Virus record (IMG/VR): IMGVR_UViG_3300030739_000001
Direction: 5' to 3' (one strand)
Length of the DNA stretch: 62,875 bases
Origin: a virus
Shown: positions 3,101-50,533 of the stretch, one piece after another
Numbering within the stretch: position 1 is the stretch's first letter
How the letters are laid out: each line of letters opens with the position of its first letter
Made by a program: the position numbers and the translations under genes
The notes under the pieces: generated by a model
Seen by the model: only the letters and a program-made list of their open reading frames with translations
Database searches by the model: none
Told to the model about the DNA's origin: nothing

Positions 3101-4316
3101 TCGCGCCGAGCGGGTGCGTCCAGTAGCCGCGCGCGAGGATGGCTGGGTTGGCGGACCACACCGTCTCGGCGATGCGCGGGTCGAACAGCTTCGCGCCGCG
3201 CACGACGGCCGAGACGTTGGGCACGCCCGAGGGGAAGCTGCCCGGGTCGTAGTCGAACTCGCAGATGAGGTAGCAGATGCCCGTGCCGATGTGGTTGGTC
3301 GTCCACATGCCGGGCAGGTTGGCGATCATCGTCGCGTCGGCCGTCTGCCCCGCTGCGCCGAGGTACTGGCGCACGCGCGCGCGGCTGTAGATGACGTTCG
3401 TCTGGTAGGTGACCTGCACCTTGCCGCCCGTCGTCGCGCCGCTCCAGCTCACGGACGTAGCGTAGCCGTCGGAGCCCGTCGCCGCGGTGAACGGCAGCGC
3501 GGTCTGCACGCCGTTGAGGGTGTGCACCACCACGATGCTGGTCGCGTTGACCTGGCCGCCCGAGTACCCGCCGGTCGTTTCGTGCGTGACGTAGTTGACC
3601 GCCGTGGTGGTCGGGATCGGGAAGGTGTAGCTTCCGGTCGAGCCACTCGCCGTGACGCTGTATGTCTGGTCCCAAAGCTGGTTGGGCGTGTACTGGCAGT
3701 AGTTCACCTGGTACGTGACGGTCACGTCGGCCACGCCGGTCGCGCGCGCGCCGCTCAGCGTGAAATGCAGGCCGTCCCCGCTGGTGCCCACGGTTAGCGT
3801 GATGGTCGCGTCGGGATACTGCGCGGTGGCGGTGACCGTGTTGCCGCGGGCCTGCTGCGCGAGGAACACGCTCAGCGTGGTCGAGTTGCTGACCGAGAAG
3901 TGCTCGGTGTTGACGTTGCCGACCACGTTGCCGTTGCCGTCGATGATGACCGGCGTGTCGTTGAAATACACCTTCTCGATCGCGTCGCACTCGTGCGCGG
4001 CCAGCACGACCACGATGGCCAGGGTCGTCTGGTTGTTGCCGTACGACTGCATGAACGCGATGGGGCCCGACACGCGGGTGCGGCCGAGCACGAGCGCGCG
4101 TTGTCCCGACGCGGTGCGCTGCATGACATAGCGGTCGCGCAGCGAGGCGTTGTAGGCGTTGCGGGCGCGGACACCCGACTCGTACGACATATACGCCGAC
4201 GCCGCGATGGCCGCGACTTCGACCGCCGTTGCGTATGCCGCAACGGCTGCGCCGATCGCATACACGTCCTCGATCGCTTCCGCGACGAGGAACTCGGTTA
4301 CTCCACCATCAGGCAT
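1..4316 (-). CDS. Host-specificity / central tail fibre protein (lambda gpJ / GTA ORFg15-like). This is the 5' 4316 nt of a 4800-nt ORF that wraps the circular junction and ends at 62265 (1599 aa).
   Basis: The minus frame with codon ends = 2 mod 3 has no stop from 4316 to base 1, so it is absent from the ORF track. The ATG at 4316-4314 overlaps the upstream stop (ATGCCTGA). Hand translation gives MPDGGVTEFLVAEAIEDVY..RTRVSGPIAFMQSYGNN..AIRYNRAGMSIKLACNLRAFPLEVFDVVTVTLPRFGF..NTWGMGETWS..GYWEFNADGSMSSTAMSVTT, which is in frame with ORF 62265..62831. Confidence 0.85.
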   Translation of the reverse strand, partial: MPDGGVTEFLVAEAIEDVYAIGAAVAAYATAVEVAAIAASAYMSYESGVRARNAYNASLRDRYVMQRTASGQRALVLGRTRVSGPIAFMQSYGNNQTTLAIVVVLAAHECDAIEKVYFNDTPVIIDGNGNVVGNVNTEHFSVSNSTTLSVFLAQQARGNTVTATAQYPDATITLTVGTSGDGLHFTLSGARATGVADVTVTYQVNYCQYTPNQLWDQTYSVTASGSTGSYTFPIPTTTAVNYVTHETTGGYSGGQVNATSIVVVHTLNGVQTALPFTAATGSDGYATSVSWSGATTGGKVQVTYQTNVIYSRARVRQYLGAAGQTADATMIANLPGMWTTNHIGTGICYLICEFDYDPGSFPSGVPNVSAVVRGAKLFDPRIAETVWSANPAILARGYWTHPLGANQPATTCDDTALMAAANVCDPSQNFNVGIFTYAQPLYQAGYVATKDMKPQDVLTDLCNAMGGRWVINGNMLRVKAGAYSAPVAAIDDSWLTGESSSSVTPLPPRQSLFNAAQGTFCDETNDFRAVLYPKQTAAALVTADGRELDLDVTYNAVTNSGRAQYLAACAIRYNRAGMSIKLACNLRAFPLEVFDVVTVTLPRFGFVAQTFEVTDTSFTPEGLVLLSLKYISASIWAMDSSYTLLAYAPKTTLPSPWNVGVPVLGTPLTGTAQLLKQADGTIVSRIYVPITVTDQSVINAGFIDVSYIDAASTTGNWSTVTLSGDSQAVFLAPVQDGHTYTLKARGRNTVTASAWSPNVSVVVQGQSALPTAVSGVAYPIVNGQVVFSWTPNTDADYKQTVIQVGPVGTTGNTWGGTGMVQLFAGAANTFSWSTTVAGNYEFQIRHYNFSGVPTASYTAVVAAPNALANGVNASLTLSTIALPSDAAGNVTSFAAATTTLSILINGVDDTANWAVTPSTSTGLTSGGSQPTYTITALAPANDTGTLTLTCTKAGFPTVAKTFTASKSKAGAVGATGSTGAAGPTGAAGATGSTGATGATGVQSAQATVYAWAITIPTGPAGSATYTWLTSSFGSAPGGWTVTPGTSPSPGFTLWAAAVAITDSAANSTTAFNWTSASITARGAAGANGATGATGATGPGGAGAFTLVTGGVMSITGGTATKTGGSGTAWDTNALSTQAYAGGAVMSMTATSVATHVMGGLSPTNTGGAGFAAVTYAAYFAAGTVQVYEAGTLIASFGSYVVGDVLSVVYDNTHVRYTKNGVVFYTSVASGSTTAGQTFYLNSSFFEIGSSAAFAFSPAGAAGATGAQSVIAYTVVGSSSTPAGSPNPDTVSGNSLPAANTWGMGETWSTTVPGYAAGQTVYQTNGIYSPTTGNTVWGLPYISALKVGSLSAISANLGTITAGDIFGADIRGGNFTGWSWPTTGGGFYLGPQGLLLGNVNTGGYWEFNADGSMSSTAMSVTTAGALTINGNATFSGTLT
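1008..1080 (-). repeat. Collagen-like Gly-X-Y tract B inside the gpJ-like gene
   Basis: Minus-frame translation ..[25 protein letters not shown].. The plus-strand shadow reads PVAPVAP. Confidence 0.7.
1318..1413 (-). repeat. Collagen-like Gly-X-Y tract A inside the gpJ-like gene
   Basis: Minus-frame translation [33 protein letters not shown]. Confidence 0.75.
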
Positions 4317-4716
4317 GACCCGTCCTCCAGCAAGTGATCGCCGCATCGAGCGGAGCGTTGAGCAGGCCCTGCGAGGTGATGACCAGCCACGACGGGCCGG
4401 CGCAGAGCGCGAGCACCGGCTTGCGGTTGCTGCGCACGAGGCCGATGTCGCCGAAGCGCGCCGTCAGCGGCGGCGCGGCCGGCCCGACCATGGCGCCGAT
4501 GCCGCGCAGGCCGCCGAGGCGGCGCACGATGCGGGCCGCGCCCGCCGCGTCGGAGTAGGTGCCGCGCACGTCCGCGCCGAGATCCACCCCGGTCTGAGCC
4601 TCCACGCAGGCCGAGGCCCACATGCAGCAGTCCAGCTTTCCCCACTCGAACGTGAGCTTGCGCACCTCGGTGATGAGATGGGTCAGGCGGTCTTCCCAAT
4701 CGGCGAGCTTCGGCAT
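4309..4716 (-). CDS. Tail-tip protein at the gpK / GTA g14 position, with an NlpC/P60-like DCC motif
   Basis: Track ORF 4309..4746 starts at a TTG. The first ATG is at 4716 (MPKLADWEDRLTHL..KLDCCMWASACVEAQTG). Its stop overlaps the gpJ-like start. Confidence 0.6.
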   Translation of the reverse strand: MPKLADWEDRLTHLITEVRKLTFEWGKLDCCMWASACVEAQTGVDLGADVRGTYSDAAGAARIVRRLGGLRGIGAMVGPAAPPLTARFGDIGLVRSNRKPVLALCAGPSWLVITSQGLLNAPLDAAITCWRTGHA

Positions 4717-4724
4717 AGCGTGCG

Positions 4725-4754
4725 AGTGTACGTTGCTGACATGCAACGAAGCAA
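4725..4754 (-). promoter_or_regulatory. TTCGTT-box promoter-like element (TTGCTT-N18-TACACT) just after the HNH stop; near-leaderless for the 4716 ATG
   Basis: The minus strand reads tagTTGCTTCGTTGCATGTCAGCAACGTACACT. Fourteen nt are identical to the copy at 61650-61663. Confidence 0.45.
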
Positions 4755-5348
4755 CTAAGGCATGTCGGGCCAGTGACGGTTTCCTTTGCTGCGATTCGTC
4801 AGGCGCGGCACCACCTTCAAGTTCGCCGGAACGTGCAGGCCGCAGACGAGCGGGCTATCCAGCGGAACGGTGTGGTCGACCTCGTGCGGCTGCCCGGTCA
4901 GTTCGGTGCGCAACGCGGCGGACAGGTACTCCCGTTCGATCGCCTCGAGGTCGGCCCACGGCGGCGTGGCCCTGAACATGATGGCGCGGCGCTTGGCGGC
5001 GTAGTGGGCGCCTAGATGCCGGTGCGCGGCAGCCCACGCGCGCTTTTGGGCGAGACGGGCCTCGCGGTTCCGGTAGTGCATTTCCCGGTTTCGCGCAAGG
5101 ATTTCTTCACGTTTGAGTTCGTAGCGTGCGCGCGTCGCGCGGGCTTTGTTCGCCCTCGTTTCGGGCTTCGCGTTCTTCCGCCACGCTTCGCGCTTTTCCG
5201 GGTTGGCTGCCTGGTACTCGCGCTGGTACTCGCGCACCCTCTCCGCGTTGGCTTTCTGGTAGGCGCAAGCCCGCGCCACGATCTGTTCGCGATTTGCGAG
5301 GTAGTACGCTCGACTTTTGGCTTTCTTTTCTTCCGGGGTCGATGGCAT
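4755..5348 (-). CDS. HNH homing-type endonuclease (paralog A1) inserted between tail-tip genes
   Basis: 197 aa. The N-terminus has basic R/Y/N/E repeats. The C-terminus reads HEVDHTVPLDSPLVCGLHVPANLKVVPRLTNRSKGNRHWPDMP. Confidence 0.8.
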   Translation of the reverse strand: MPSTPEEKKAKSRAYYLANREQIVARACAYQKANAERVREYQREYQAANPEKREAWRKNAKPETRANKARATRARYELKREEILARNREMHYRNREARLAQKRAWAAAHRHLGAHYAAKRRAIMFRATPPWADLEAIEREYLSAALRTELTGQPHEVDHTVPLDSPLVCGLHVPANLKVVPRLTNRSKGNRHWPDMP

Positions 5349-5378
5349 TCGGGGGTTCCTTGGAGAGAGAATTCCCGA

Positions 5379-5407
5379 TCCTATCGACTTCGTGGCAACG
5401 AAGCAAA
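5379..5407 (-). promoter_or_regulatory. TTCGTT-box promoter-like element (TTTGCT-N17-ATAGGA) upstream of HNH A1
   Basis: The minus strand reads tttgCTTCGTTGCCACGAAGtcgATAGGA. It aligns with the copies at 58901-58929 and 61636-61664. Confidence 0.5.
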
Positions 5408-5423
5408 TAAACAGTTAAGCGGC

Positions 5424-5990
5424 TTATTTCCGAAAGTAGGCTGCACTTGGCCAGACAATTTGCTGGTCGAACTGCTGGCTCGTGTACTGGAAGAACAGAT
5501 CTCCCGGATGCAGCGCCTGCTGGTCGGCGTCGGCGTAGTAGAGCGGCGCCGGCCGGTTCAGGTCGATGCCTACGTGCTCTGCGGTCACCGTGATGGTCGA
5601 ATTGTTCGGCGTGTCGTCCACGGTTAGCGTGTCGAGCTGGCCGGCCCAAATCGGCACCACGTCTGTGACGGCGTAGGTCGTCGGGTCGAGGAGGGCCAGG
5701 CTGATCGTCACCGGGGTACCCTGCACCGTGCCCGAGAGCACCAGCGCCAGGTTGGAGGTGGGCACGCCGGACAGCTCGAACTGCAGCTGCTTGATCTCGG
5801 CGGCCGTCGTCTCCACCGCGCTGATCTTGCCGAGGCCGGCGACCCCCGAGTAGGTGACGCCGCCGGCTACGAGGGCGATGTTCGAGGTGCACAGGTTCAG
5901 CGGCGTGGCGAACGCCATGCTCACGAGCACCGCCATCGGCACCATGCCGCCCGCGATGTTCGTTTGGCCGGCAGTGGAAAGCGTTTTCAT
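5424..5990 (-). CDS. Minor tail protein at the gpL / GTA g13 position (DUF2163-like)
   Basis: The true start is MKTLSTAGQTNIAGG at 5990, in a TAATG overlap with the upstream stop. The track ORF 5424..6578 carries an Arg-rich false N-terminal extension. Confidence 0.65.
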   Translation of the reverse strand: MKTLSTAGQTNIAGGMVPMAVLVSMAFATPLNLCTSNIALVAGGVTYSGVAGLGKISAVETTAAEIKQLQFELSGVPTSNLALVLSGTVQGTPVTISLALLDPTTYAVTDVVPIWAGQLDTLTVDDTPNNSTITVTAEHVGIDLNRPAPLYYADADQQALHPGDLFFQYTSQQFDQQIVWPSAAYFRK

Positions 5991-6592
5991 TAGAAGGACT
6001 CCCGCAGGCTGATGGACGGCGCCGTGTACTCGCCGCCAGGGAGCCACGTCAACGCAGGGTTCGCGCTCGTCAGAAGGAACGGCGCGGTGGGCGTCGTGAC
6101 CGTGACGACTGTGCCGGCCGCGATGCCGCCGGCCGCGCGCACGCGGGGCGCCACCTCGACGCTGATGTGGCCGCTGCCGTCTGCCACCCCCGAGGTCAGC
6201 GCGCGGAACAGCTGCGCGCCGCACCCGAGCATGTCGCCCACGGCGATGGTGGCGCCGACGGTGGTGGTGATCGCCAGGGTGTTGGTGAGCTGCGCCGCAA
6301 GGGTCGTGAGGACGGGCGCGCCGCTCATCGTCCCGGCGTTCTTCGTCACGCGCAGGTTGGACAGGATGATGCGATTCGCCGCGCCCTTGAGCCGGTCGAA
6401 GAACGCCTCGATCGCGCTGCCCGCCACGACGCCGCGGCCCGGCGTGAAATCCATCTCCGCCACCCAGCAGTCCCCCATCATGTCGATGGCTTGGGTCTGG
6501 TTGCTGTACGGGGACGAGAACGTCTTGCCGAGCGGCTGCACGCGCATCACGAAGCGCGAGATGGGGAAGTTGGGCCAAGAGTAGTCAGCCAT
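5990..6592 (-). CDS. Minor / distal tail protein at the gpM / GTA g12 position
   Basis: 200 aa, MADYSWPNFPISRFVMRVQPLGKTF.., immediately after the tape measure gene. Confidence 0.6.
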   Translation of the reverse strand: MADYSWPNFPISRFVMRVQPLGKTFSSPYSNQTQAIDMMGDCWVAEMDFTPGRGVVAGSAIEAFFDRLKGAANRIILSNLRVTKNAGTMSGAPVLTTLAAQLTNTLAITTTVGATIAVGDMLGCGAQLFRALTSGVADGSGHISVEVAPRVRAAGGIAAGTVVTVTTPTAPFLLTSANPALTWLPGGEYTAPSISLRESF

Positions 6593-6595
6593 GAT

Positions 6596-9337
6596 TTAGC
6601 CTCGCAGTTTTCCGGTGCTGGACAGGCGCTGCACTTGCGTGAGCGTCTGCCTGTTCGATTCCGCAAGGGCCTGCGCGACTTCAGCGCGCGAAACGCCCTG
6701 CCCCACGTTGATAATTTGCCCTTGGCCGATATGAAAAGTGTCGCCGCCCCCGCCGCCGAGAGCGTCGTTCGGCGTGATGCTGCCGCTGCCGGAAGCGTGG
6801 AACAGCTCCGGGCCGCGCTCACCCACGAGGTACGTGCCGCCCGAGTTGATGTTGCCGCCGGTCGCGCGCGCACCGGAGATCGCGGACGCGAACAGGTTGA
6901 CGCTGCCGGCGTCGGCCTCGGGCGACGCGCTGCCGCCGCTGCCGCCGCTGCCCAGCAGGCCCAGCAGGCCGCCCCACAGGCCGCTCGTGGGGCCCGCCAT
7001 CTTGGCGACCAGCATGCGCGTCTCGGCCGAGAGGAACTCGTCGGCCATGGTCTTCCACAGGTCTTTGAAGGAAATCTTGCCCTTCTCGCGCAGCCGGTCG
7101 ATGGCGTTGGAGATGGTGTCCAGCGAGCTCGTGGTCAGCTTGGCCGCGATTGCGCCTTGATTGCTGGCGTCCTCGGCCCACTTCGTGCCTGCGTTGCCCG
7201 CGCCAGTCTGCGCGCTGCGGGAGTCTGCATACTGCGCGCGGCGCGCCTCGGTGGCTCCCTTGATGGCATCCTGCATGCGGATCCAGATTGCCGTCTCCAT
7301 CTCGGGATACTTGAGCAGCTCCTCCTCCGCGGCCTTCTGGATCTTCGCGGCGTCTGCGGCCTGGAGGCGTTGCAGCGTGCTCTCGTGCAGCGCGTCGTTC
7401 TCGCGGTTGATCGCGTCCACCTCAGCCTTGACGCTCTCGTTGCGCTTCGCCGCGTCGGTGGAGTAGGACCTGTACCGAGCGTTGTCGTAGTTCTCGCCGG
7501 CCTGGGCGGCCTTGATCGCGGCCTGTTCCTTCAAGGCCGCCGTCGTCTGCTTGCTGAGCGAGAGCTGCGAAGCCTCGAGCGCCTGGTCGATGTAGGCATC
7601 CCGCGCGCTCTTTTCCCGCGCCTTGGACAGCTCGACGTAGGCCGCGACCTCCGCGGTGACATCCTTGAGCCGCAGGGCCGCCTTATTCGCGGTGTCGGCC
7701 GCGTCGTCCGCCGTGGCGGCTGCCGTGAGCGTGGCGCCCTGCTTCGTGTTGCCCTGCCCGTACAGCTTGTCGGCCGGATCAGCGAAGCGCGCCTGCAGCA
7801 CCGCGACGCGCTCGGTGACAGCGTGGGTGTTCGTCGTGTAGCTCAGCGTGAGCGCGTCGAGCTTGGTCTTCTCGTCGGTGAGCTGCTTGAGGGTCGAGTC
7901 GTAGGCGCTGATCTCCTTGTTGCCCGAGCGGTCGCCGTGCAGCTTCTCGACGCCCTTGACCGCGGCGCCGTAGTCGGCATCCGAGACGGTGCCGCCGTTG
8001 CCGATCACCTTGTCGCGCGCGGCGGCGAGCTTCTCGAGATCTTCGCGCAGCGTCGATGCAGCCTTGCCCCGCTCCTTCATCTGGTTGATGAAATCGACCG
8101 ACGCCGTGGCCTCCTTGCGGGCCTGCTCCTCCTTGGACTGGCCCATCGCCTTCGCGTTTTTGTCGCCCTCGGCCGCGGCCAGCGCGTCGCGCATCGCCGT
8201 CAGCTGCTTGAGCTGCGCCTTGAGCGCGGGCTCCTCGTAGGCCATGGCCACGGGGTTGCCTTGGCCGCGCGCAATGGCTGCCTTGCCGTCGGCGATGCGC
8301 TTGAACAGGCCGTTGATCTTGGCGTCCAAGTCGTCCAGCTTCTGGCCGTCGCCCGGATCAAGGAACCGCTGCACCGCGGCGGCGGCATTGCCGAACATCG
8401 CCGTGAGCGATCCCAGGTACGTGGTCGTCGCCGGCAGCCGCTTGTTCATCGCGTCGAGGTAGATCGCGAGCGCGCCCTGCACATCGCCCATCTTCTGCGA
8501 GGCCACGATCGCCTGGTACTGCGCGGCGCTGACGGCGCCCCATGCGTTCTCGTGCTCCTTGGCGAACGACGCCACGTCCTTGCCGGCGCGCGACATCTCC
8601 TGCGCCACCTCGCCCACGCTTTTGCCGGACAGCTCGGCCACCTTGACGGCGAGCAGACCCATCTTCTCGATGCTCGCCGCGCCGACCGTGCCGCTGCTCG
8701 CGAGCTCCATCAGCGCGTCGTGCGCCTTCCCGATGCTGGTCGCCCCCGACTTGCTGATCGACTCGGACATGCGGTCGAAGCTGCCCACGGTCATACCTGC
8801 GGCGTTGCCGGTCAGCGTCACGGCATGCGCCAGCTTGGTCATCTCCATCTCGCGCGCCACAACGGCCGCGCCGAGGGCGGCCACGGCTCCGATGGCAATG
8901 CCGATCGGGCCGGCGAGCGCGCTCAGCACGGACGCCGCCGTCTTCGAGTGCTCGGCGAGCACCACGAACGAGCCGCCCATGCGCTTGAAGTTGCCAGAGA
9001 TACCCTCGTGGAACATGACCATCAGCTCGCGCGTGGTGGCCGCGTTGGCCGAGCCGAACGCCTTCGTGGCCTTGGCCGCACTGTCCATCGCGCGCTCGGC
9101 CTCGGCGGCGGCCTTGGGCAGTGCGCCGGCCGCCTGCATGGCGATCTTGTTCTGCTCCTCGATGGCCTTCGTCTGCCGGTTGATTGCGGCCACCTGGCGC
9201 GCGCGGCTGGCGGCGTCCAGCTCGGTGGCCCGCACCATGCGCTGCGCGGTGGCTTCCGAGGTCTTGCCCAGGGCCTGGATGCTGCCGTCGGCACTGGACG
9301 TGTCGGCGGTGAATTTGATGTCGACTGACTCTGCCAT
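6596..9337 (-). CDS. Tail tape measure protein
   Basis: 913 aa. It is Ala/Lys/Glu-rich and helical, has a Gly-rich C-terminus, lies between the chaperones and the tail-tip genes, and has a GAGG RBS. Confidence 0.85.
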   Translation of the reverse strand: MAESVDIKFTADTSSADGSIQALGKTSEATAQRMVRATELDAASRARQVAAINRQTKAIEEQNKIAMQAAGALPKAAAEAERAMDSAAKATKAFGSANAATTRELMVMFHEGISGNFKRMGGSFVVLAEHSKTAASVLSALAGPIGIAIGAVAALGAAVVAREMEMTKLAHAVTLTGNAAGMTVGSFDRMSESISKSGATSIGKAHDALMELASSGTVGAASIEKMGLLAVKVAELSGKSVGEVAQEMSRAGKDVASFAKEHENAWGAVSAAQYQAIVASQKMGDVQGALAIYLDAMNKRLPATTTYLGSLTAMFGNAAAAVQRFLDPGDGQKLDDLDAKINGLFKRIADGKAAIARGQGNPVAMAYEEPALKAQLKQLTAMRDALAAAEGDKNAKAMGQSKEEQARKEATASVDFINQMKERGKAASTLREDLEKLAAARDKVIGNGGTVSDADYGAAVKGVEKLHGDRSGNKEISAYDSTLKQLTDEKTKLDALTLSYTTNTHAVTERVAVLQARFADPADKLYGQGNTKQGATLTAAATADDAADTANKAALRLKDVTAEVAAYVELSKAREKSARDAYIDQALEASQLSLSKQTTAALKEQAAIKAAQAGENYDNARYRSYSTDAAKRNESVKAEVDAINRENDALHESTLQRLQAADAAKIQKAAEEELLKYPEMETAIWIRMQDAIKGATEARRAQYADSRSAQTGAGNAGTKWAEDASNQGAIAAKLTTSSLDTISNAIDRLREKGKISFKDLWKTMADEFLSAETRMLVAKMAGPTSGLWGGLLGLLGSGGSGGSASPEADAGSVNLFASAISGARATGGNINSGGTYLVGERGPELFHASGSGSITPNDALGGGGGDTFHIGQGQIINVGQGVSRAEVAQALAESNRQTLTQVQRLSSTGKLRG

Positions 9338-45682: not shown

Positions 45683-46528
45683 ATGCAACTTGAAACTCTG
45701 ACCAAGCTCGCCGAGTCCCACTCGATGGGCAACAAGCGCGCCACCGAGCTGCTGGCCGCCGCGGGCGTGCAGCCCTCCGCCGAGGTGTCGTTCGGCAAGG
45801 GCACCATGCGGCTGTACGAAGCGGAGCCCGCGCGCGCCGCGCTGGTCGCCGCCGTGAAGGCCGAGGGCGAAGCGGCTGCCGCTGCCGCCCTGGCCGCGCT
45901 GCCTCCGGTGACGCAGGCCCCCACGGTTCTCGGCATCGAGTACGTCATGGAGGCCGTCGCCGCGGCGCACGCCGAGAACCGCCGCCTGCACACCGCCGCG
46001 GTCGGCGACCATGAGCGCATCGAGACGGCGACCACGAAGCTGGCCGACCAGAACGTCCTGCTGCTGCGCGCGATCGAGAGCATCAAGACCACGTTCCTCG
46101 GCAAGCTGGACGCGCTGCAGGAATCCTTCGACGCGCGCATCGACTCGCTGGCCGACCCGCTCTCGCGCATCACGAGATCGACCGCGCCGCTGGGCCTCGT
46201 GCCAGGTCGAGATCCCACGCCTGCGCCCAAGACCCGCGTGGGCATCATCGGCTTGTTCCCCGCGCAGTCGACCACGATTGAGAAGGAGTTCGCCGACGTG
46301 TTCGACCTGGTGCTGATCCCCGGCGCCGAGAGCACGCCGGGCGGCTTGGTGTCGAAGCTCTCCAGCTGCCACAGCGTGTTCGTCATGCAGGTCGGCCAGT
46401 CCAAGGCCGGCGAGCGTCTGCTGAAGGAGGCAGGTGTCCGCGCCACGCGCATCACCGGCAGCATCTCCTCGCTGCGCAACGAGCTGACCAACCTGTTCGT
46501 GTCGATCAGCGACAAGAAGGCGGCTTGA
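45683..46528 (+). CDS. Hypothetical protein (281 aa) with a C-terminal DUF2325-like segment
   Basis: Reads ..RVGIIGLFPAQSTTIEKEF..VFVMQVGQSKAGERLLKEAGVRATRITGSISSL. Confidence 0.55.
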   Translation: MQLETLTKLAESHSMGNKRATELLAAAGVQPSAEVSFGKGTMRLYEAEPARAALVAAVKAEGEAAAAAALAALPPVTQAPTVLGIEYVMEAVAAAHAENRRLHTAAVGDHERIETATTKLADQNVLLLRAIESIKTTFLGKLDALQESFDARIDSLADPLSRITRSTAPLGLVPGRDPTPAPKTRVGIIGLFPAQSTTIEKEFADVFDLVLIPGAESTPGGLVSKLSSCHSVFVMQVGQSKAGERLLKEAGVRATRITGSISSLRNELTNLFVSISDKKAA

Positions 46529-46529
46529 G

Positions 46530-47423
46530 ATGAGCGCGGGCGCCACGATGGAGTATCGCTACGGCAACAAGAACAACTGGCGCCGCCGCGTGTGGAACGC
46601 CGTGCGTGAGGTGACGGACAACCCGCGGGACTCGCTGGTGTTGTTCCTCGCAGGGCGCGAGGCTGCAGACGTAGCCGTCGCTGCCGCCAAGGGGTTCCGC
46701 CCGGTGAACATGATCGCGGTCGAGCGGGACCCGGAGACACTGCGTCATCTGCGTGCCAACGGGCAGCTGACCATCGACGGCGATCTCACCGGAGCGATGG
46801 CCGCGTGGCCTAACACCCGGCCCGTTTCGGTCGTCATCGCCGACTTCTGCTGCGGTTTGTCCCCTGTGCTCGCCTTCGAGCTAGTCACCGCGTGGATGAC
46901 CCAGCCGTTTTACCGCGCAACCATGGTCGTCAACTTTCTGAGGGGCCGGGACGCTGCGAGCAATGAAATCCGGCAGGGCTGCATCGAGTGGCTGTCCGAT
47001 CTTCGGCGCCGCCTGGATGAACTGGAGGACGACATGCTCGACCTCCACGACGGGGGCGCGCCGATTCCGCTGCACTACTGCCGCGCGCTCACAGAGAGTG
47101 ATCCGAAGTCCCGTGCGCTGCATTTCTTTCTCATGACCGCAGGCCTCTACTTCGGCGAGCGCGACCCGAGCCTCTTTCAGATCGAGGCGATGTTCGCAAT
47201 GCAACGCCCCTCGATTTTTAGCTATCGGTCCACCGCCGGCAACCAAGTGTTCGACACCGTGGTCATAGCCGCCCCCGGTCGGAATTTGGACTCCGCAGGC
47301 ATCAGCGGTGAACTGGCCGACGCAATCCACGCGGCGTCCATCAAAACGCGCCCGGCCCGAGGAGGCGTGAAACAGAGCATCTCCGCCATTCTCGCGCACC
47401 ACACCCGTCGCACCCAATGCTGA
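46530..47423 (+). CDS. Rossmann / SAM-MTase-like protein of unknown specificity
   Basis: Reads ..SLVLFLAGREAADVAVAAAKGF..NMIAVERDPET..VVIADFCCG.. Confidence 0.45.
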   Translation: MSAGATMEYRYGNKNNWRRRVWNAVREVTDNPRDSLVLFLAGREAADVAVAAAKGFRPVNMIAVERDPETLRHLRANGQLTIDGDLTGAMAAWPNTRPVSVVIADFCCGLSPVLAFELVTAWMTQPFYRATMVVNFLRGRDAASNEIRQGCIEWLSDLRRRLDELEDDMLDLHDGGAPIPLHYCRALTESDPKSRALHFFLMTAGLYFGERDPSLFQIEAMFAMQRPSIFSYRSTAGNQVFDTVVIAAPGRNLDSAGISGELADAIHAASIKTRPARGGVKQSISAILAHHTRRTQC

Positions 47424-50400
47424 CCGCCCCGCCCCCTCCCCTCCGCACCATCATCGCCGGCAGCCGCGACATCACTGACCTGGCGCACGTGCGCGCCGCG
47501 ATGGCGTCGTGTCCCTGGTTCCCGTCGGTCGTGGTGAGCGGCGCCGCGCGCGGCGTGGACAAGCTCGGCGAGCGGTGGGCGGCGGAGCGCGGCATCCCGG
47601 TCGAGAGCCACCCGGCCGACTGGGACAAGCACGGCAAGCACGCGGGGCACCTGCGCAACGCCGAGATGGCGCGCGCCTCCGACGGCCTCGTGGCGGTGTG
47701 GGACGGCCGCAGCCCCGGCACGCGCGACATGATCGACTCGGCACGCTCGATGGGCCTCCGCGTCCACGTCGTGCAGGTCGTGGTGCCGTACCCCGCCGCT
47801 CCACCCGCCCCGCGGGCGGTGCCGACGATCGACGCGCGGGACATCCCCGGGCTGCAGGCACCACTCCAGCCGATCTGCAAGCGTGCGCGCGAGGGCAACG
47901 GCATCGTGCCGCTGGACTGCCTGTTCGGGTGCGCCCACGGCTGCGGCAAGCCGGCGTTCGGGATCTCGCCCGCTGCCCCGCCGGCGCCGGTGCCGGTGCA
48001 CAAGCTGCCGCGCGGCACGGTGCTGCGCGTGGGGCCGTCCTACGCCACGGTGAACGCCGAGTGCGACATGGAAGCGTTCTCCGAGGCCGGCTGGACGTGG
48101 GACGGCGAGCAGCGCAAGTGGCTCAAGCCCGAGGGCGCGTCGAAGCAGAAGAAGGGCCTGGAGATCGTCGGGGTGGATCTCTACGCGCGCCACCCGAGCG
48201 CGGCGATCCTGATGATGGCCTACGACCTGAAGGACGGCCTCGGCTGGCGCGTGTGGCTCGAAGGGCAGCCGTTCCCCGCCGACCTGGCCGCGCACATCGC
48301 CGCCGGCAGGATCCTCGAAGCGCACAACTCCGGGTTCGAGCAGCGCATGTGGCTTCACGTCGGGGTCAAGAAGTACGGCTGGCCAGCGATGCCCGACCAC
48401 CTGTGGCGCTGCAGCGCGGCGAAGGCGCGGGCCTACGCCTACCCCGGCAAGCTGGACGAGGTGGGCGCCGTGATGAAGCTCGACATCCAGAAGGATGAAG
48501 CGGGCAAGGCGCTCATCGACAAGTTCACCATGCCGCGCAACCCGACGGCGCGCGATCCGCGCACGCGCGTGCTGCTCCAGTGGTCGGCCGACGTGGCCGC
48601 GGCGCGCGCTGCCTACGACAAGCTCGGGATCCCGCACGGCTACCACGTGGAGGACATCGCGCAGCCCAAGGCGCCGCGCGCCAAGAAGGACCAGACGGTC
48701 GAGATGATCGTGCCGGGCCTGTGGCGCGTCACCACGGCCGGCGCTCTCACCGCTGAGACGGTGGCCAAGGACTACGCCGACACACTGGCGTTCGTGCGCT
48801 ACTGCGTGCGCGACATCGAGTCCGAGGCGGAGGTGTCCGGTCGCTGCCCGGATCTGGAAGGGGACGAGCTGGAGTGGTGGCAGTTCGGCCAGGAGAGCAA
48901 CGCGCACGGTATGCACGTCGACCGCGTCGGGCTGGACAACTGCGCGGAGATCGTGCGGCAGTGCCTCGCGCGCTACGACGCCGAGCTCGTGCAGATCACG
49001 GGCGGCCTCAAGTCCAGCCAGGTCAAGAAGATCACCGAGTGGCTCGCCGCGCGCGGCCTCCACATGGCGTCGCTGGACGAGGAGCACGTCACCGAGGCGC
49101 TGGAGCGCACCGACCTGACGCCCGAGTGCCGCCGCGTGCTGGAGATCCGCGCCGCGGCCGGCAGCGCCTCGGTCAAGAAGGTGTTCGCGATCGAGAACAC
49201 TCTGAGCCCCGACAACCGGCTCCGCGACCTCTACATCATCAACGGGGCGCGCACGGGGCGCGATACCGGCGTCGGCGCGCAGCCCGCCAACCTGCCGAGC
49301 TACGGCCCCGCGCCGCACAAGTGCGCGTGCGGGACGTTCTTCGCCGGCCGCTTCTCCTGCCCGACGTGCAACACGCCGCTCGCCCCTGGCGCGAAGCCGG
49401 GCGAGTGGAGCCTGGCGTGCGCGGAGCAGGCGCTCGAGCTGTTCAAGAAACGCAGCTTGGCCGAGGTGGAGCGGGTGTGGGGCGTGGGCAATGCGCTGCA
49501 CGCCGTCGCCGGCTGCCTGCGCGGCCTGTTCTGCGCGGCGCCGGGGCACGACCTGATCTCGTCCGACTACAACTCCATCGAGGCTGTGGCCATGGCGATG
49601 GTGTCGGGCGAGAAGTGGCGCATCGACACGTTCAACGGCCACGGCAAGATTTACGAAGCGTCGGCCGCGGCGATGTTCAAGATCCCGTTCGAGGACTTCA
49701 TGTACCACCGGGGGTACACCCCGGAGCAGCTCAAGCAGCCCGAGTGGTGGAAGCAGGATCCGGCGATCCCCGGCAAGACGCACCACCCGCTGCGCAAGAC
49801 TGGCAAGATTGCCGAGCTGGCGTTCGGCTTCCAGGGCGGCCTCGGTTCGGCCAATGCGTTCGGCATGCCGGGCAACGACGCGGAGAAGACGCAGAACGTG
49901 CGCGACTGGCGCAACGTGAGTCCGAGCATCGAATGGCTGTGGGGTGGGCAGACGCAGGGCAAGGCCAACGCCATCCGCGGCCACGGCAGCAAGTGGGACA
50001 AGACGCCGTTCCTGTTCGGCGTGGAAGGCGCGTTCCTCAACGCCATCCGCCACGAGGGTGTCGAGTTCAAAATCAACCGGCTCGACAATACCTATACCGG
50101 GTTCTCCTATACCCGCCACGGCGACGTGATTTGGGCGCTGCTGCCGAGCGGTCGATATCTCAAGTACCACGCGGCGCGCGAGGGCGCCGGCAAGTGGGAA
50201 GGCCAAGCCGGCATGTCCTACGAGGGCAAGAACACTAATCCGAAGAACGGGCCGGTGGGCTGGATCCGCATGGATACCTGGGGCGGTCGCCTCGTTGAGA
50301 ATCTGATCCAGGCAATTTGCCGAGACATCTTAAAAGAAGCTGTCTTGCGCTTGCGAAAAGCCGGCTACACCACCGTTATGCGCACTTATGACGAAGTCGT

Positions 50401-50533
50401 CTGCGAGATACTCAAGGGGTTTGGCAGCCACGAGGAGTTCGAGCGGATCGTGGAGATTCGCCCCTGGTGGGCGCCTGATTGGCCGATCCGGGCGCCGGAC
50501 TCCTGGCGGGGGCTGCGCTACCGCAAAGCGTGA
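47417..50533 (+). CDS. Family A DNA polymerase (3'-5' exo plus pol) fused to an N-terminal DUF2493 / SLOG domain
   Basis: One continuous 1038-aa ORF. The N-terminus reads IIAGSRDITD..VVSGAARGVDKLGERWAAERG..ADWDKHGKHAGHLRNAEM. The exonuclease motif is AECDMEAFS. The PolA body follows. Confidence 0.8.
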   Translation: MLTAPPPPLRTIIAGSRDITDLAHVRAAMASCPWFPSVVVSGAARGVDKLGERWAAERGIPVESHPADWDKHGKHAGHLRNAEMARASDGLVAVWDGRSPGTRDMIDSARSMGLRVHVVQVVVPYPAAPPAPRAVPTIDARDIPGLQAPLQPICKRAREGNGIVPLDCLFGCAHGCGKPAFGISPAAPPAPVPVHKLPRGTVLRVGPSYATVNAECDMEAFSEAGWTWDGEQRKWLKPEGASKQKKGLEIVGVDLYARHPSAAILMMAYDLKDGLGWRVWLEGQPFPADLAAHIAAGRILEAHNSGFEQRMWLHVGVKKYGWPAMPDHLWRCSAAKARAYAYPGKLDEVGAVMKLDIQKDEAGKALIDKFTMPRNPTARDPRTRVLLQWSADVAAARAAYDKLGIPHGYHVEDIAQPKAPRAKKDQTVEMIVPGLWRVTTAGALTAETVAKDYADTLAFVRYCVRDIESEAEVSGRCPDLEGDELEWWQFGQESNAHGMHVDRVGLDNCAEIVRQCLARYDAELVQITGGLKSSQVKKITEWLAARGLHMASLDEEHVTEALERTDLTPECRRVLEIRAAAGSASVKKVFAIENTLSPDNRLRDLYIINGARTGRDTGVGAQPANLPSYGPAPHKCACGTFFAGRFSCPTCNTPLAPGAKPGEWSLACAEQALELFKKRSLAEVERVWGVGNALHAVAGCLRGLFCAAPGHDLISSDYNSIEAVAMAMVSGEKWRIDTFNGHGKIYEASAAAMFKIPFEDFMYHRGYTPEQLKQPEWWKQDPAIPGKTHHPLRKTGKIAELAFGFQGGLGSANAFGMPGNDAEKTQNVRDWRNVSPSIEWLWGGQTQGKANAIRGHGSKWDKTPFLFGVEGAFLNAIRHEGVEFKINRLDNTYTGFSYTRHGDVIWALLPSGRYLKYHAAREGAGKWEGQAGMSYEGKNTNPKNGPVGWIRMDTWGGRLVENLIQAICRDILKEAVLRLRKAGYTTVMRTYDEVVCEILKGFGSHEEFERIVEIRPWWAPDWPIRAPDSWRGLRYRKA

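Follow-up and report, generated by a model that had tools for sequence, protein, structure and literature searches.

A YAcAr/DUF2493 SLOG domain fused to the N-terminus of a phage family A DNA polymerase

Organisation of the fused polymerase gene

The window analysed here is a stretch of 62,875 nucleotides of virus DNA (IMG/VR record IMGVR_UViG_3300030739_000001), carried by a temperate phage (siphophage). Its replicative family A DNA polymerase, P0001, is encoded on the plus strand (47417..50533) by a single uninterrupted ORF of 1038 open codons, and the 1038-aa product consists of a SLOG domain, a linker, an exonuclease domain and a polymerase domain. The ATG at 47417 overlaps the TGA (47421-47423) of the upstream gene, which suggests that the two genes are translationally coupled. 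Neighbouring genes encode a gp2.5-like SSB and a PD-(D/E)XK exonuclease.

In the frame of P0001, GC3 is 0.9-1.0 across the SLOG and linker codons and over most of the polymerase; it drops to ~0.7-0.8 in the last ~120 codons, where the other two frames lie still lower, so that nothing points to a shift of frame. Gene calls on 11 independent contigs, taken from ENA, JGI and Logan assemblies, give exactly this 1038-aa protein, and one variant of equal length differs by one substitution. P0001 is therefore not a frameshift artefact, and the idea that errors of sequencing or assembly joined two genes, or that the start was called wrongly, is extremely improbable given also that a single frame keeps its high GC3 right across the SLOG/polymerase junction, that a homologous fusion is seen in more than 15 ORFs, three of them in cultured phages, and that the relative P0007 begins with the same MLTAPPPP.

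The SLOG domain spans residues 9-121 (47441..47779, plus strand), as judged from Pfam, PHROG, an alignment of 66 sequences, AF2 and fold matches. PF10686 (YAcAr, formerly DUF2493) matches residues 10-72 with an E value of 8.3e-14 and 51.6 bits, compared to a Pfam gathering cut-off of 28.2 bits, and phrog_289 covers residues 10-121 (E 3e-27). The AF2 model of residues 1-135 has a pLDDT of 91.9 and contains five beta-alpha units. All of its top 15 structural matches (15/15) are SLOG-superfamily proteins, the best being YpsA (2nx2; Z 12.0, rmsd 2.9 over 117 residues), with further matches to ShosA (Z 11.7), DprA (Z 11.1, 11.0 and 10.0) and TM1055 (Z 10.2). The SLOG domain of ThsA (Z 8.4) and the LOGs (Z about 8) match more weakly, and nucleoside 2-deoxyribosyltransferases are found among the lower matches (Z 6.8-6.9).

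The domain is followed by a Pro/Ala-rich linker (residues 122-195; 47780..48001, plus strand) that is predicted to be disordered, with 16 Pro in 75 residues and a pLDDT below 50 for residues 126-182 in the full-length AF2 model. Among fused relatives, linker length ranges from a few tens to more than 100 residues. Sequence comparison places a small Cys motif inside the linker of P0001 (residues 152-177; 47870..47947, plus strand), with the cysteines C154, C168, C172 and C176 and the pattern P-[IL]-C-x(2-3)-A-R-E-x-G-x(1-2)-[VI]-P-[LI]-[DE]-C-x-F-x-C. Among the linkers compared, this motif is common only to P0001, P0008 and P0179; it may bind a metal.

Behind the linker lie a 3'-5' exonuclease domain (about residues 196-480; 48002..48856, plus strand), identified by motifs, AF2 and Foldseek, and a family A polymerase domain (about residues 481-1038; 48857..50530, plus strand), identified by the same means and by phrog_17 (DNA polymerase; residues 253-1037, E 1.7e-63). 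The Pfam model PF00476 reaches 25.2 bits and stays below its cut-off of 34.3, because the polymerase clade is divergent. The full-length AF2 model (pLDDT 91) is matched by Foldseek with a probability of 1.00 to phage G20c Pol I, M. smegmatis Pol1, Klenow, Bst, Pol theta and DpoZ (E 1e-14 to 1e-11). When the catalytic residues are assigned to motifs by pattern, D717 of polymerase motif A, R793/K797 of motif B and D992-E993 of motif C are invariant among 65 clade members, as are Y462 and D466 of the ExoIII motif (Y462-x3-D466), while the ExoI motif D217-x-E219 is nearly invariant. By these criteria, the active sites of the polymerase and of the proofreading exonuclease are both intact in this divergent enzyme. 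The polymerase also has a zinc-ribbon-like CxC...CxxC insert (C634, C636, C648, C651; 49316..49369, plus strand), of which C648 and C651 are nearly invariant in the clade. The original prediction, made from the sequence alone, had described a complete DUF2493/SLOG module fused in frame to the N-terminus of a family A polymerase, with a Pro-rich linker, a Cys cluster and the 3'-5' exonuclease domain in between; this architecture is borne out in each part by the coding frame and the independent contigs, the profile searches, the predicted structures and the conserved motifs.

A cassette absent from the nearest relative

An 8-nt direct repeat, GCCCCGCC, lies at both boundaries of the SLOG-plus-linker segment. 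The left copy (47426..47433, plus strand) and the right copy (47975..47982, plus strand) are in frame with each other and bracket a cassette of 549 nt (183 codons). P0007, the nearest relative (75% identical), is devoid of exactly this 183-codon cassette and joins residues 1-8 straight to about residue 192.

Distribution of SLOG domains on phage polymerases

SLOG-PolA fusions are also found in Pseudoalteromonas phage PY6, two Vibrio phages and about 15 metagenomic relatives (fused ORFs in L007, L008, L009, L024, phage PY6 and Vibrio phage 367.14). In L006, L014, L016, L018 and L023, SLOG is a separate gene directly upstream of a polymerase of the same PolA clade, and in P0030 it is an internal insert within such a polymerase. 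N-terminal SLOG domains also occur on classical PolA (P0020, P0190) and on family B polymerases (P0178, P0180, P0188), and these classical PolA and PolB fusions sit in a syntenic DUF2800-SSB-polymerase module. In trees built from about 115 columns, in which most forks are weakly supported, the PolB-fused SLOGs cluster with the PolA-fused ones with moderate support. Further DNA-enzyme partners of the family are an RNase T-like exonuclease, MT-A70 and the HelB helicase of ICP1; other members are fused to NADAR and DUF4326 (P0020, P0021, P0202, P0205), and Macro-domain fusions have been described in the literature.

Only 2 of the 150 nearest polymerase representatives (50% clusters) carry SLOG. 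The flanking DNA scanned for two close relatives, P0011 and P0012, contains no SLOG, and none of the genes called near a third, P0029, has a Pfam match. Within IMG/VR, about 70 of 80 SLOG loci consist of an ORF of about 115-220 aa that has no polymerase of this clade in its vicinity, and the domain occurs in 1303 of 50,697 phage records, in keeping with the earlier remark that these modules usually stand alone. Judged by these comparisons, the fusion is neither unique nor required for polymerase function, and SLOG is shown to be an optional accessory that has repeatedly been joined to and lost from phage DNA polymerases. A functional tie to DNA synthesis is strongly supported by the same comparisons, because members of one subfamily lie beside polymerases of three lineages, are fused to them or sit within them. 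This pattern of upstream gene, N-terminal fusion and internal insert, with both PolA and PolB in syntenic modules, amounts to a "Rosetta stone" that ties YAcAr/DUF2493 to DNA synthesis.

Conserved features of the SLOG pocket

Invariant positions in the 66-sequence alignment are A14, G15, R17, G42, A44, G46, D48, W69, A76, G77, R80, N81, M84, W95, S99 and G101, with D96 nearly invariant, and the pocket residues are still invariant in the polymerase-fused forms. The stretch G46-V-D48, with its invariant G46 and D48, fits the GxD/E substrate-binding signature of the YpsA-like clade (PMC6459960). DprA proteins bind ssDNA through a first motif, G-S/T/A-R after the first core strand, and a second, F/L/Y-x-x-R-N/D (PMC3950713). 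The first is present as G15-S16-R17, of which G15 and R17 are invariant; in the region of the second, R80-N81 is invariant and the platform position is G77 instead of an aromatic residue or Leu. In a profile search, the G-S-R and SG.A.G.D stretches align with DprA of S. pneumoniae at an E value of 0.05, and the DprA family model PF02481 stays below threshold (11.1 bits against a cut-off of 29.6, E 0.23). The P-G-G-x-G-T-x-x-E motif of the LOG family (PF03641) is replaced by S99-P-G101-T102-R-D-M105, in which a nearly invariant Met (M105) stands where the motif has Glu. For a domain without this catalytic motif, nucleotide processing of the LOG type is unlikely. The original prediction had suggested nucleotide sensing or processing coupled to synthesis: the link to synthesis is strongly supported by the comparison across three polymerase lineages, whereas the mechanism is a putative one and processing of the LOG type finds little room.

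Possible roles of the fused domain

To our knowledge, no function has been experimentally established for YAcAr/DUF2493. The reading preferred here, tentatively and with less than even confidence, is that the SLOG domain would serve as a flexibly tethered, non-LOG accessory of the replisome that binds nucleotides or ssDNA. A small YpsA/DprA-like domain, probably not a LOG-type hydrolase, would be held at the polymerase N-terminus by a long, flexible Pro-rich tether and act in cis from there, not as a regulatory lobe docked rigidly on the enzyme. Its pocket, made up of the G-S-R loop, GxD and R80-N81, could bind a nucleotide moiety at the fork, with a base or phosphate of the single-stranded template, possibly a modified one, as the likeliest ligand by analogy with DprA and ShosA. 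Holding ssDNA in this way might recruit, retain or gate the polymerase, alongside the neighbouring gp2.5-like SSB and PD-(D/E)XK exonuclease. Against ssDNA as the ligand stand the Gly in place of the hydrophobic platform residue (F/L/Y) of DprA motif 2, the missing dimerisation and accessory parts of DprA, the sub-threshold Pfam score for DprA, and YpsA, not DprA, as best fold match. The YpsA clade is predicted to handle NAD or ADP-ribose derivatives (PMC6459960), and the NADAR, DUF4326 and Macro partners likewise argue for a small ligand of the ADP-ribose type.

A possible, if doubtful, alternative is that the pocket binds or degrades a host-immunity signal derived from NAD+ or ADP-ribose (e.g. 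cADPR isomers), the signal either switching the fused polymerase or being mopped up early in infection. Iyer, Burroughs, Anantharaman and Aravind put forward this reading for the SLOG fusions of phages in 2022 (PMC9503650, section 3.7.4). Besides the match to YpsA, the invariant GxD of its clade and the family members fused to NADAR and DUF4326, this role is consistent with the match to the SLOG domain of ThsA, a sensor of cADPR isomers. However, that match is weaker than those to DprA and ShosA, and the literature searched reports no ligand for any YAcAr protein. A sponge for a soluble signal would also have no obvious need to be joined repeatedly to DNA polymerases of three lineages, nor to a helicase, exonucleases and a DNA methylase.

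DarT-type defences block phage replication by ADP-ribosylating DNA. It is conceivable, although unlikely, that the polymerase-linked SLOG reads or erases ADP-ribosylated bases of the ssDNA template and is thereby a replisome-borne counter-measure against these defences. Recognition of ADP-ribosylated DNA would unite the DNA-enzyme partners of the family (PolA, PolB, helicase, exonuclease, methylase) with its NADAR, Macro and DUF4326 partners. Phage NADAR proteins strip ADP-ribose off phage DNA (PMC11825919), and escape from DarTG is stated in PMC11348598 to map to phage polymerases.

Improbable, too, is a nucleotide-processing enzyme that hydrolyses or transfers the base or sugar of free (d)NMP or (d)NTP and so cleans or reshapes the pool of precursors directly beside the polymerase. 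Those LOG-like SLOG domains that have been characterised by experiment are N-glycosidases, deoxyribosyltransferases appear among the weaker fold matches, and the conserved D48, D96 (nearly invariant), R17 and R80 could in principle catalyse such a reaction, but the LOG motif with its Glu is missing, the LOG and deoxyribosyltransferase matches rank under those to YpsA, ShosA and DprA, and the window gives no sign of a modified-base pathway adjoining the gene.

It would be similarly surprising if SLOG were a passenger with a job of its own outside DNA synthesis, fused merely as a neighbour in a compact operon: the module is readily lost, precisely so in P0007, and absent from most clade members, its long disordered linker suggests little structural integration, and five loci encode it as a separate gene next to the polymerase, but the two came to be paired through different junctions (at the N-terminus, either behind a Pro leader or lacking one, as an internal loop insert, or as an upstream gene) and with the unrelated folds of PolA and PolB, the PolB-fused SLOGs group with the PolA-fused ones with moderate support, and the pocket has stayed invariant in fused forms.

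Relation to known systems

Should the domain bind ssDNA, or DNA that is damaged, it would represent a polymerase accessory of a new kind; should it sense immune nucleotides instead, this would be the first replicase wired directly to host immune signalling. YAcAr/DUF2493 is among the commoner uncharacterised phage domains and is carried by about 2.6% of the phage genomes deposited. Its stand-alone members (PF10686; PHROG 289, "GTP-binding domain") are 40-57% identical to the SLOG domain of P0001 and have the same domain size of about 110 aa and the same invariant pocket residues, but are free proteins of about 115-220 aa and not covalently tethered to a replicase.

DprA and ShosA have in common with the SLOG domain the Rossmannoid fold (Z 10-11.7), together with the G-S-R loop and the R-N core of the helix motif, two elements that in these proteins bind a nucleotide of ssDNA. 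Both are larger dimers with extra domains and RecA binding, and the SLOG of P0001 is without the aromatic platform residue. YpsA of B. subtilis, the top structural match with a common GxD/E motif, is a cell-division regulator of cells with 12% identity to the domain and no polymerase link. The SLOG of ThsA (Thoeris), from the same superfamily, gives a precedent for a sensor pocket switching a fused enzyme, but it is a more distant match and belongs to a host defence protein, in which its fusion partner is a SIR2 NADase and no DNA enzyme.

Among phage proteins, ICP1 HelB (an SF1B, Dda-like helicase) likewise carries DUF2493 on a replication enzyme acting on ssDNA (bioRxiv 10.1101/671271), although the domain is C-terminal and its partner a helicase, in contrast to the N-terminal SLOG on the polymerase of P0001. 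Sporadic phage SLOG fusions to nucleic-acid enzymes and other domains (HTH, HNH, 3'-5' exonuclease, SF1 helicase, guanylate kinase) have been described with sensing as the proposed role (PMC9503650). P0001 resembles these; the text consulted names no family A or B replicative polymerase as a SLOG partner, and the series of adjacent, fused and inserted SLOG-polymerase pairs is absent from it.

SLOG-less natural twins of the same polymerase and three cultured fused phages make cheap, concrete experiments possible. These phages are vB_Psp_PY6 (gp25, XJP07732.1), labelled only "DNA polymerase", and Vibrio phages 367.14 and 97.13, whose records carry no annotation. Their proteins combine an N-terminal SLOG with the same divergent PolA clade and align to P0001 with a query coverage of 90-99% and 34-38% identity. 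Unlike P0001, PY6 gp25 lacks both the Cys motif and the Pro leader, and the linkers of all three are shorter.

An intact gene for a SLOG-polymerase fusion

SLOG domains are tied recurrently to DNA polymerases, whatever the form of the junction, and are easily lost from them. In the window, the SLOG-polymerase gene (47417-50533, + strand) forms one open frame of 1038 codons, which confirms the original prediction of an in-frame fusion in which SLOG, a cysteine-containing linker, a 3'-5' exonuclease and a family A polymerase follow one another. Third-position GC in the coding frame lies at 0.9-1.0 from the N-terminal domain through the linker and across most of the polymerase; in the final ~120 codons it drops to about 0.7-0.8, yet still exceeds both other frames. 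As it stays highest in the coding frame throughout, nothing in the composition suggests a frame change. Gene calls on 11 contigs, drawn from ENA, JGI and Logan assemblies, yield the exact 1038-aa protein; 8 of these contigs fall in the 50-200 kb class. There is also a variant of equal length that differs by one residue. An assembly artefact is a very unlikely explanation of this ORF, as the identical protein comes from independent assemblies and many fused homologues are known.

Fold and pocket of the SLOG domain

The N-terminal domain is a bona fide YAcAr member of the SLOG superfamily, a family that Burroughs et al. 2015 reportedly defined in its founding paper. PF10686 (YAcAr, formerly DUF2493) matches residues 10-72 well over its gathering score (E 8.3e-14), and PHROG 289 matches residues 10-121 (E 3e-27). 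The AF2 model of residues 1-135, built from a 66-sequence alignment, has a mean pLDDT of 91.9 and shows a Rossmannoid fold of five beta-alpha units. In an exhaustive structural comparison, the top match was YpsA (2nx2; Z 12.0, rmsd 2.9 over 117 residues), followed at lower rank by the DprA-like antitoxin ShosA (Z 11.7), three DprA structures (Z 10.0-11.1) and TM1055, with the SLOG domain of ThsA at Z 8.4 and LOG enzymes at about 8. All 15 top structural matches are SLOG proteins, so that the predicted SLOG similarity stands by both HMM and structure prediction. Searched by sequence against the PDB, the domain alone gave only spurious matches to designed WD40 repeat proteins.

Sixteen positions are invariant among 66 SLOG domains, fused and free. 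The substrate-binding signature of the YpsA clade, GxD/E (PMC6459960), is present as G46-V-D48. In H. pylori DprA, mutagenesis and a crystal complex have shown that G-S/T/A-R and F/L/Y-x-x-R-N/D hold a nucleotide of ssDNA (PMC3950713); the first motif is fully matched by G15-S16-R17, while the position of the second reads G77-H-L-R80-N81, with the Arg-Asn pair kept and the aromatic platform absent. A profile search aligns S. pneumoniae DprA at motif 1 and at the SG.A.G.D stretch behind it, a match that at E 0.05 is sub-threshold. The window SLOG lacks PGGxGTxxE, the catalytic motif of LOG enzymes, and a nearly invariant Met occupies its Glu position. As the GxD/E signature and the core of the DprA motifs are present and the LOG motif is missing, these residues point to a YpsA/DprA-like ligand-binding domain, not to a hydrolase of the LOG type. 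The domain falls outside both the LOG and the DprA families by their models and full motifs, and it may well work like the DprA core.

Linker, exonuclease and polymerase

The full-length model has a pLDDT of 91 and a pTM of 0.80. Residues 126-182 fall below a pLDDT of 50 and have no secondary structure, so that a flexible tether links the two folded parts. Within this stretch lies a cysteine motif (47870-47947, residues 152-177; P-[IL]-C-x(2-3)-ARE-x-G-x(1-2)-[VI]-P-[LI]-[DE]-C-x-F-x-C, then one more Cys) that may form a small metal-binding knuckle; its AF2 pLDDT is below 50. A motif search found it in the linkers of P0008 and P0179, two fusions of a different polymerase subclade; it is absent from the closer relatives P0003 and P0004.

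Over its C-terminal 840 residues, the protein matches phrog_17 (E 2e-63). Foldseek matched solved family A polymerases (phage G20c Pol I, M. smegmatis Pol1, Klenow, Bst, Pol theta and DpoZ) with a probability of 1.00 at just 10-14% identity, and a sequence search of the polymerase against the PDB gave no match at E 0.01. Polymerase motifs A (D717), B (R793/K797) and C (D992-E993) and exonuclease residues D217, E219, Y462 and D466 are invariant or nearly so in 65 clade members, and because of this conservation the enzyme should both polymerise and proofread. A DpoZ or modified-base polymerase was considered and rejected, as DpoZ is just one among numerous remote PolA fold matches and the surroundings of the gene showed nothing purZ-like. 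The polymerase domain also carries a zinc-ribbon-like CxC...CxxC insert (49316-49369, residues 634-651), the second Cys pair of which is nearly invariant clade-wide, an unusual trait for family A polymerases.

Different junctions between SLOG and polymerases

Fusions of SLOG to polymerases sit unremarked in public records. The architecture of the window protein recurs in Vibrio phages 367.14 and 97.13 and in Pseudoalteromonas phage vB_Psp_PY6 gp25 (904 aa), which is annotated simply as 'DNA polymerase'. Further fused forms were found in protein collections (P0003, P0004, P0008, P0009, P0010, P0179, P0184, P0185, P0200 and some fragments) and in IMG/VR (L007, L008, L009 and L024). The fusion is a minority state of the polymerase clade, with SLOG on 2 of the 150 nearest 50%-identity representatives. 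Large intein-like inserts occur in L009 and P0024.

Five IMG/VR contigs (L006, L014, L016, L018 and L023) each encode SLOG in an ORF of its own, immediately 5' of a polymerase from the same clade. In L014, L016, L018 and L023 (about 3900-7900 each), the polymerase is split into an exonuclease ORF of about 320-350 aa and a polymerase ORF of about 500-535 aa, with a gap of 140-900 nt. A same-clade polymerase known from a single 28.5-kb contig (P0030, L005:280-3141) contains a complete internal SLOG (residues 361-472), inserted between the positions that correspond to residues 565 and 567 of the window polymerase, a site that the model places in a loop between two helices. SLOG also precedes other polymerases. 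In P0020 and P0190, DUF4326 or DUF4031 is followed by SLOG and then by a different, classical PolA; the 1054 residues of P0190 combine DUF4031, SLOG, a 3'-5' exonuclease and classical PolA. In P0178, P0180 and P0188, a SLOG 61-67% identical to that of the window is fused to a family B polymerase (phrog_1252, E 1e-161 to 1e-164; PDB matches to S. solfataricus PolB1 and E. coli Pol II). P0178 (L089:7530-9896; SLOG 67% identical) lies in a module of DUF2800, SSB, polymerase, exonuclease, dUTPase and SNF2 helicase that is syntenic with the replication module of the window; the arrangement suggests that the polymerase was exchanged while the SLOG ahead of it was kept.

Shorter partners of SLOG include an RNase T-like exonuclease and MT-A70, and ICP1 HelB is a helicase bearing DUF2493 (bioRxiv 10.1101/671271). 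Phage SLOG fusions to nucleic-acid enzymes have been described in general terms, with HTH, HNH, 3'-5' exonuclease, SF1 helicase and guanylate kinase among the partners (PMC9503650). A polyvalent-type protein of 1280 aa (P0021) has a NADAR match (PF08719) and SLOG at residues 456-567.

In the SLOG tree, the domains fused N-terminally to PolA and those fused to PolB group together, though not strongly (SH-aLRT 89); the SLOGs encoded as adjacent genes make up their own clade with good support, and those inserted internally or fused to classical PolA fall in other parts of the tree. SLOG-linked rows are scattered over the polymerase tree, where well-supported FastTree branches force at least six changes. 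Under any count of gains and losses, several distinct junctions between SLOG and polymerase have arisen. This wider pattern of adjacent, fused and inserted SLOGs across polymerases is the most informative result, and such a series was not found in the literature examined, the founding YAcAr paper being outside its coverage. Nor were family A and B replicative polymerases found there as recurrent SLOG partners; Burroughs et al. 2015 or the supplements of PMC9503650 could list a SLOG-polymerase.

Loss of SLOG in close relatives

P0007, the closest polymerase relative (75% identical), shares the first eight residues MLTAPPPP and then jumps to a segment near window residue 192, so that a clean cassette of 183 codons comprising SLOG and linker distinguishes the two. 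An 8-nt direct repeat, GCCCCGCC, flanks the cassette at 47426 and 47975, exactly 549 nt apart and in frame; by itself it is not significant in so GC-rich a genome. A short Pro tract, then L-x-x-G, opens the sequence of many unfused clade members, and every fused form keeps this tract C-terminal to the linker. From these tracts and the SLOG tree, P0007 is read as having probably lost the cassette secondarily, by deletion from one Pro tract to the other. For close unfused relatives, six-frame scans (L086, L087 and L088) revealed no hidden upstream SLOG gene, the flanking DNA scanned for P0011 and P0012 held no SLOG, and none of the genes called around P0029 had a Pfam match. Since P0007 and other close relatives do without it, SLOG is an optional accessory outside the catalytic machine. 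A natural SLOG-less polymerase twin was likewise not found in the literature examined, outside whose coverage the founding YAcAr paper lies.

A possible role at the replication fork

The linkage to polymerases makes a common, uncharacterised domain a directly testable candidate for a replisome accessory. We tentatively favour a fork-gripping module, a reading that is plausible without being probable: the SLOG pocket would hold a nucleotide moiety at the replication fork, most likely of the ssDNA template and possibly a modified base, and this grip would recruit, retain or gate the tethered polymerase. It is favoured because the partners are almost all DNA enzymes, the core of the DprA motifs is kept and the nearest folds include DprA and ShosA. 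A complex prediction of residues 1-135 with residues 190-1038, supplied as alignments, scored 0.00 and weighs neither for nor against binding.

The main rival, a published idea for viral SLOG that seems possible but doubtful here, is that the domain senses or degrades immune signals derived from NAD+ or ADP-ribose; the YpsA-type GxD motif, the NADAR and DUF4326 fusion partners within the same SLOG family and the Macro fusions known from the literature are consistent with it. Phage NADAR proteins strip ADP-ribose from phage DNA and thereby defeat DarTG1 (PMC11825919), and DarTG escape maps to phage polymerases (PMC11348598). From these two reports a speculative unifying reading can be drawn, in which the SLOG ligand would be ADP-ribosylated DNA. 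A nucleotide-processing enzyme is improbable given the missing LOG motif, and a passenger with no functional connection to the polymerase is quite unlikely, as independent junctions arose repeatedly.

Genomic setting

The window resembles the genome of a temperate siphovirus (~63 kb, 67% GC). It encodes a large terminase, portal, protease, major head protein, tape measure and integrase, and the nearest matches to its terminase come from temperate phages of Pseudomonas and Burkholderia (59% identity). The replication module on the + strand comprises, in this order, a DUF2800/PD-(D/E)XK exonuclease, a DNA methylase, a gp2.5-like ssDNA-binding protein, two proteins that match no family and the polymerase, which carries the only SLOG domain of the window; a primase and an SNF2-like helicase are encoded elsewhere. 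Compared with phages by megablast, the module gave no match. The two genes directly 5' of the polymerase (45683-46528, 281 aa; 46530-47423, 297 aa; both +) encode proteins that match neither Pfam nor PHROG. The polymerase ATG overlaps the upstream stop within ATGCTGA, an arrangement typical of translational coupling, and the gene so coupled is that of the 297-aa protein.
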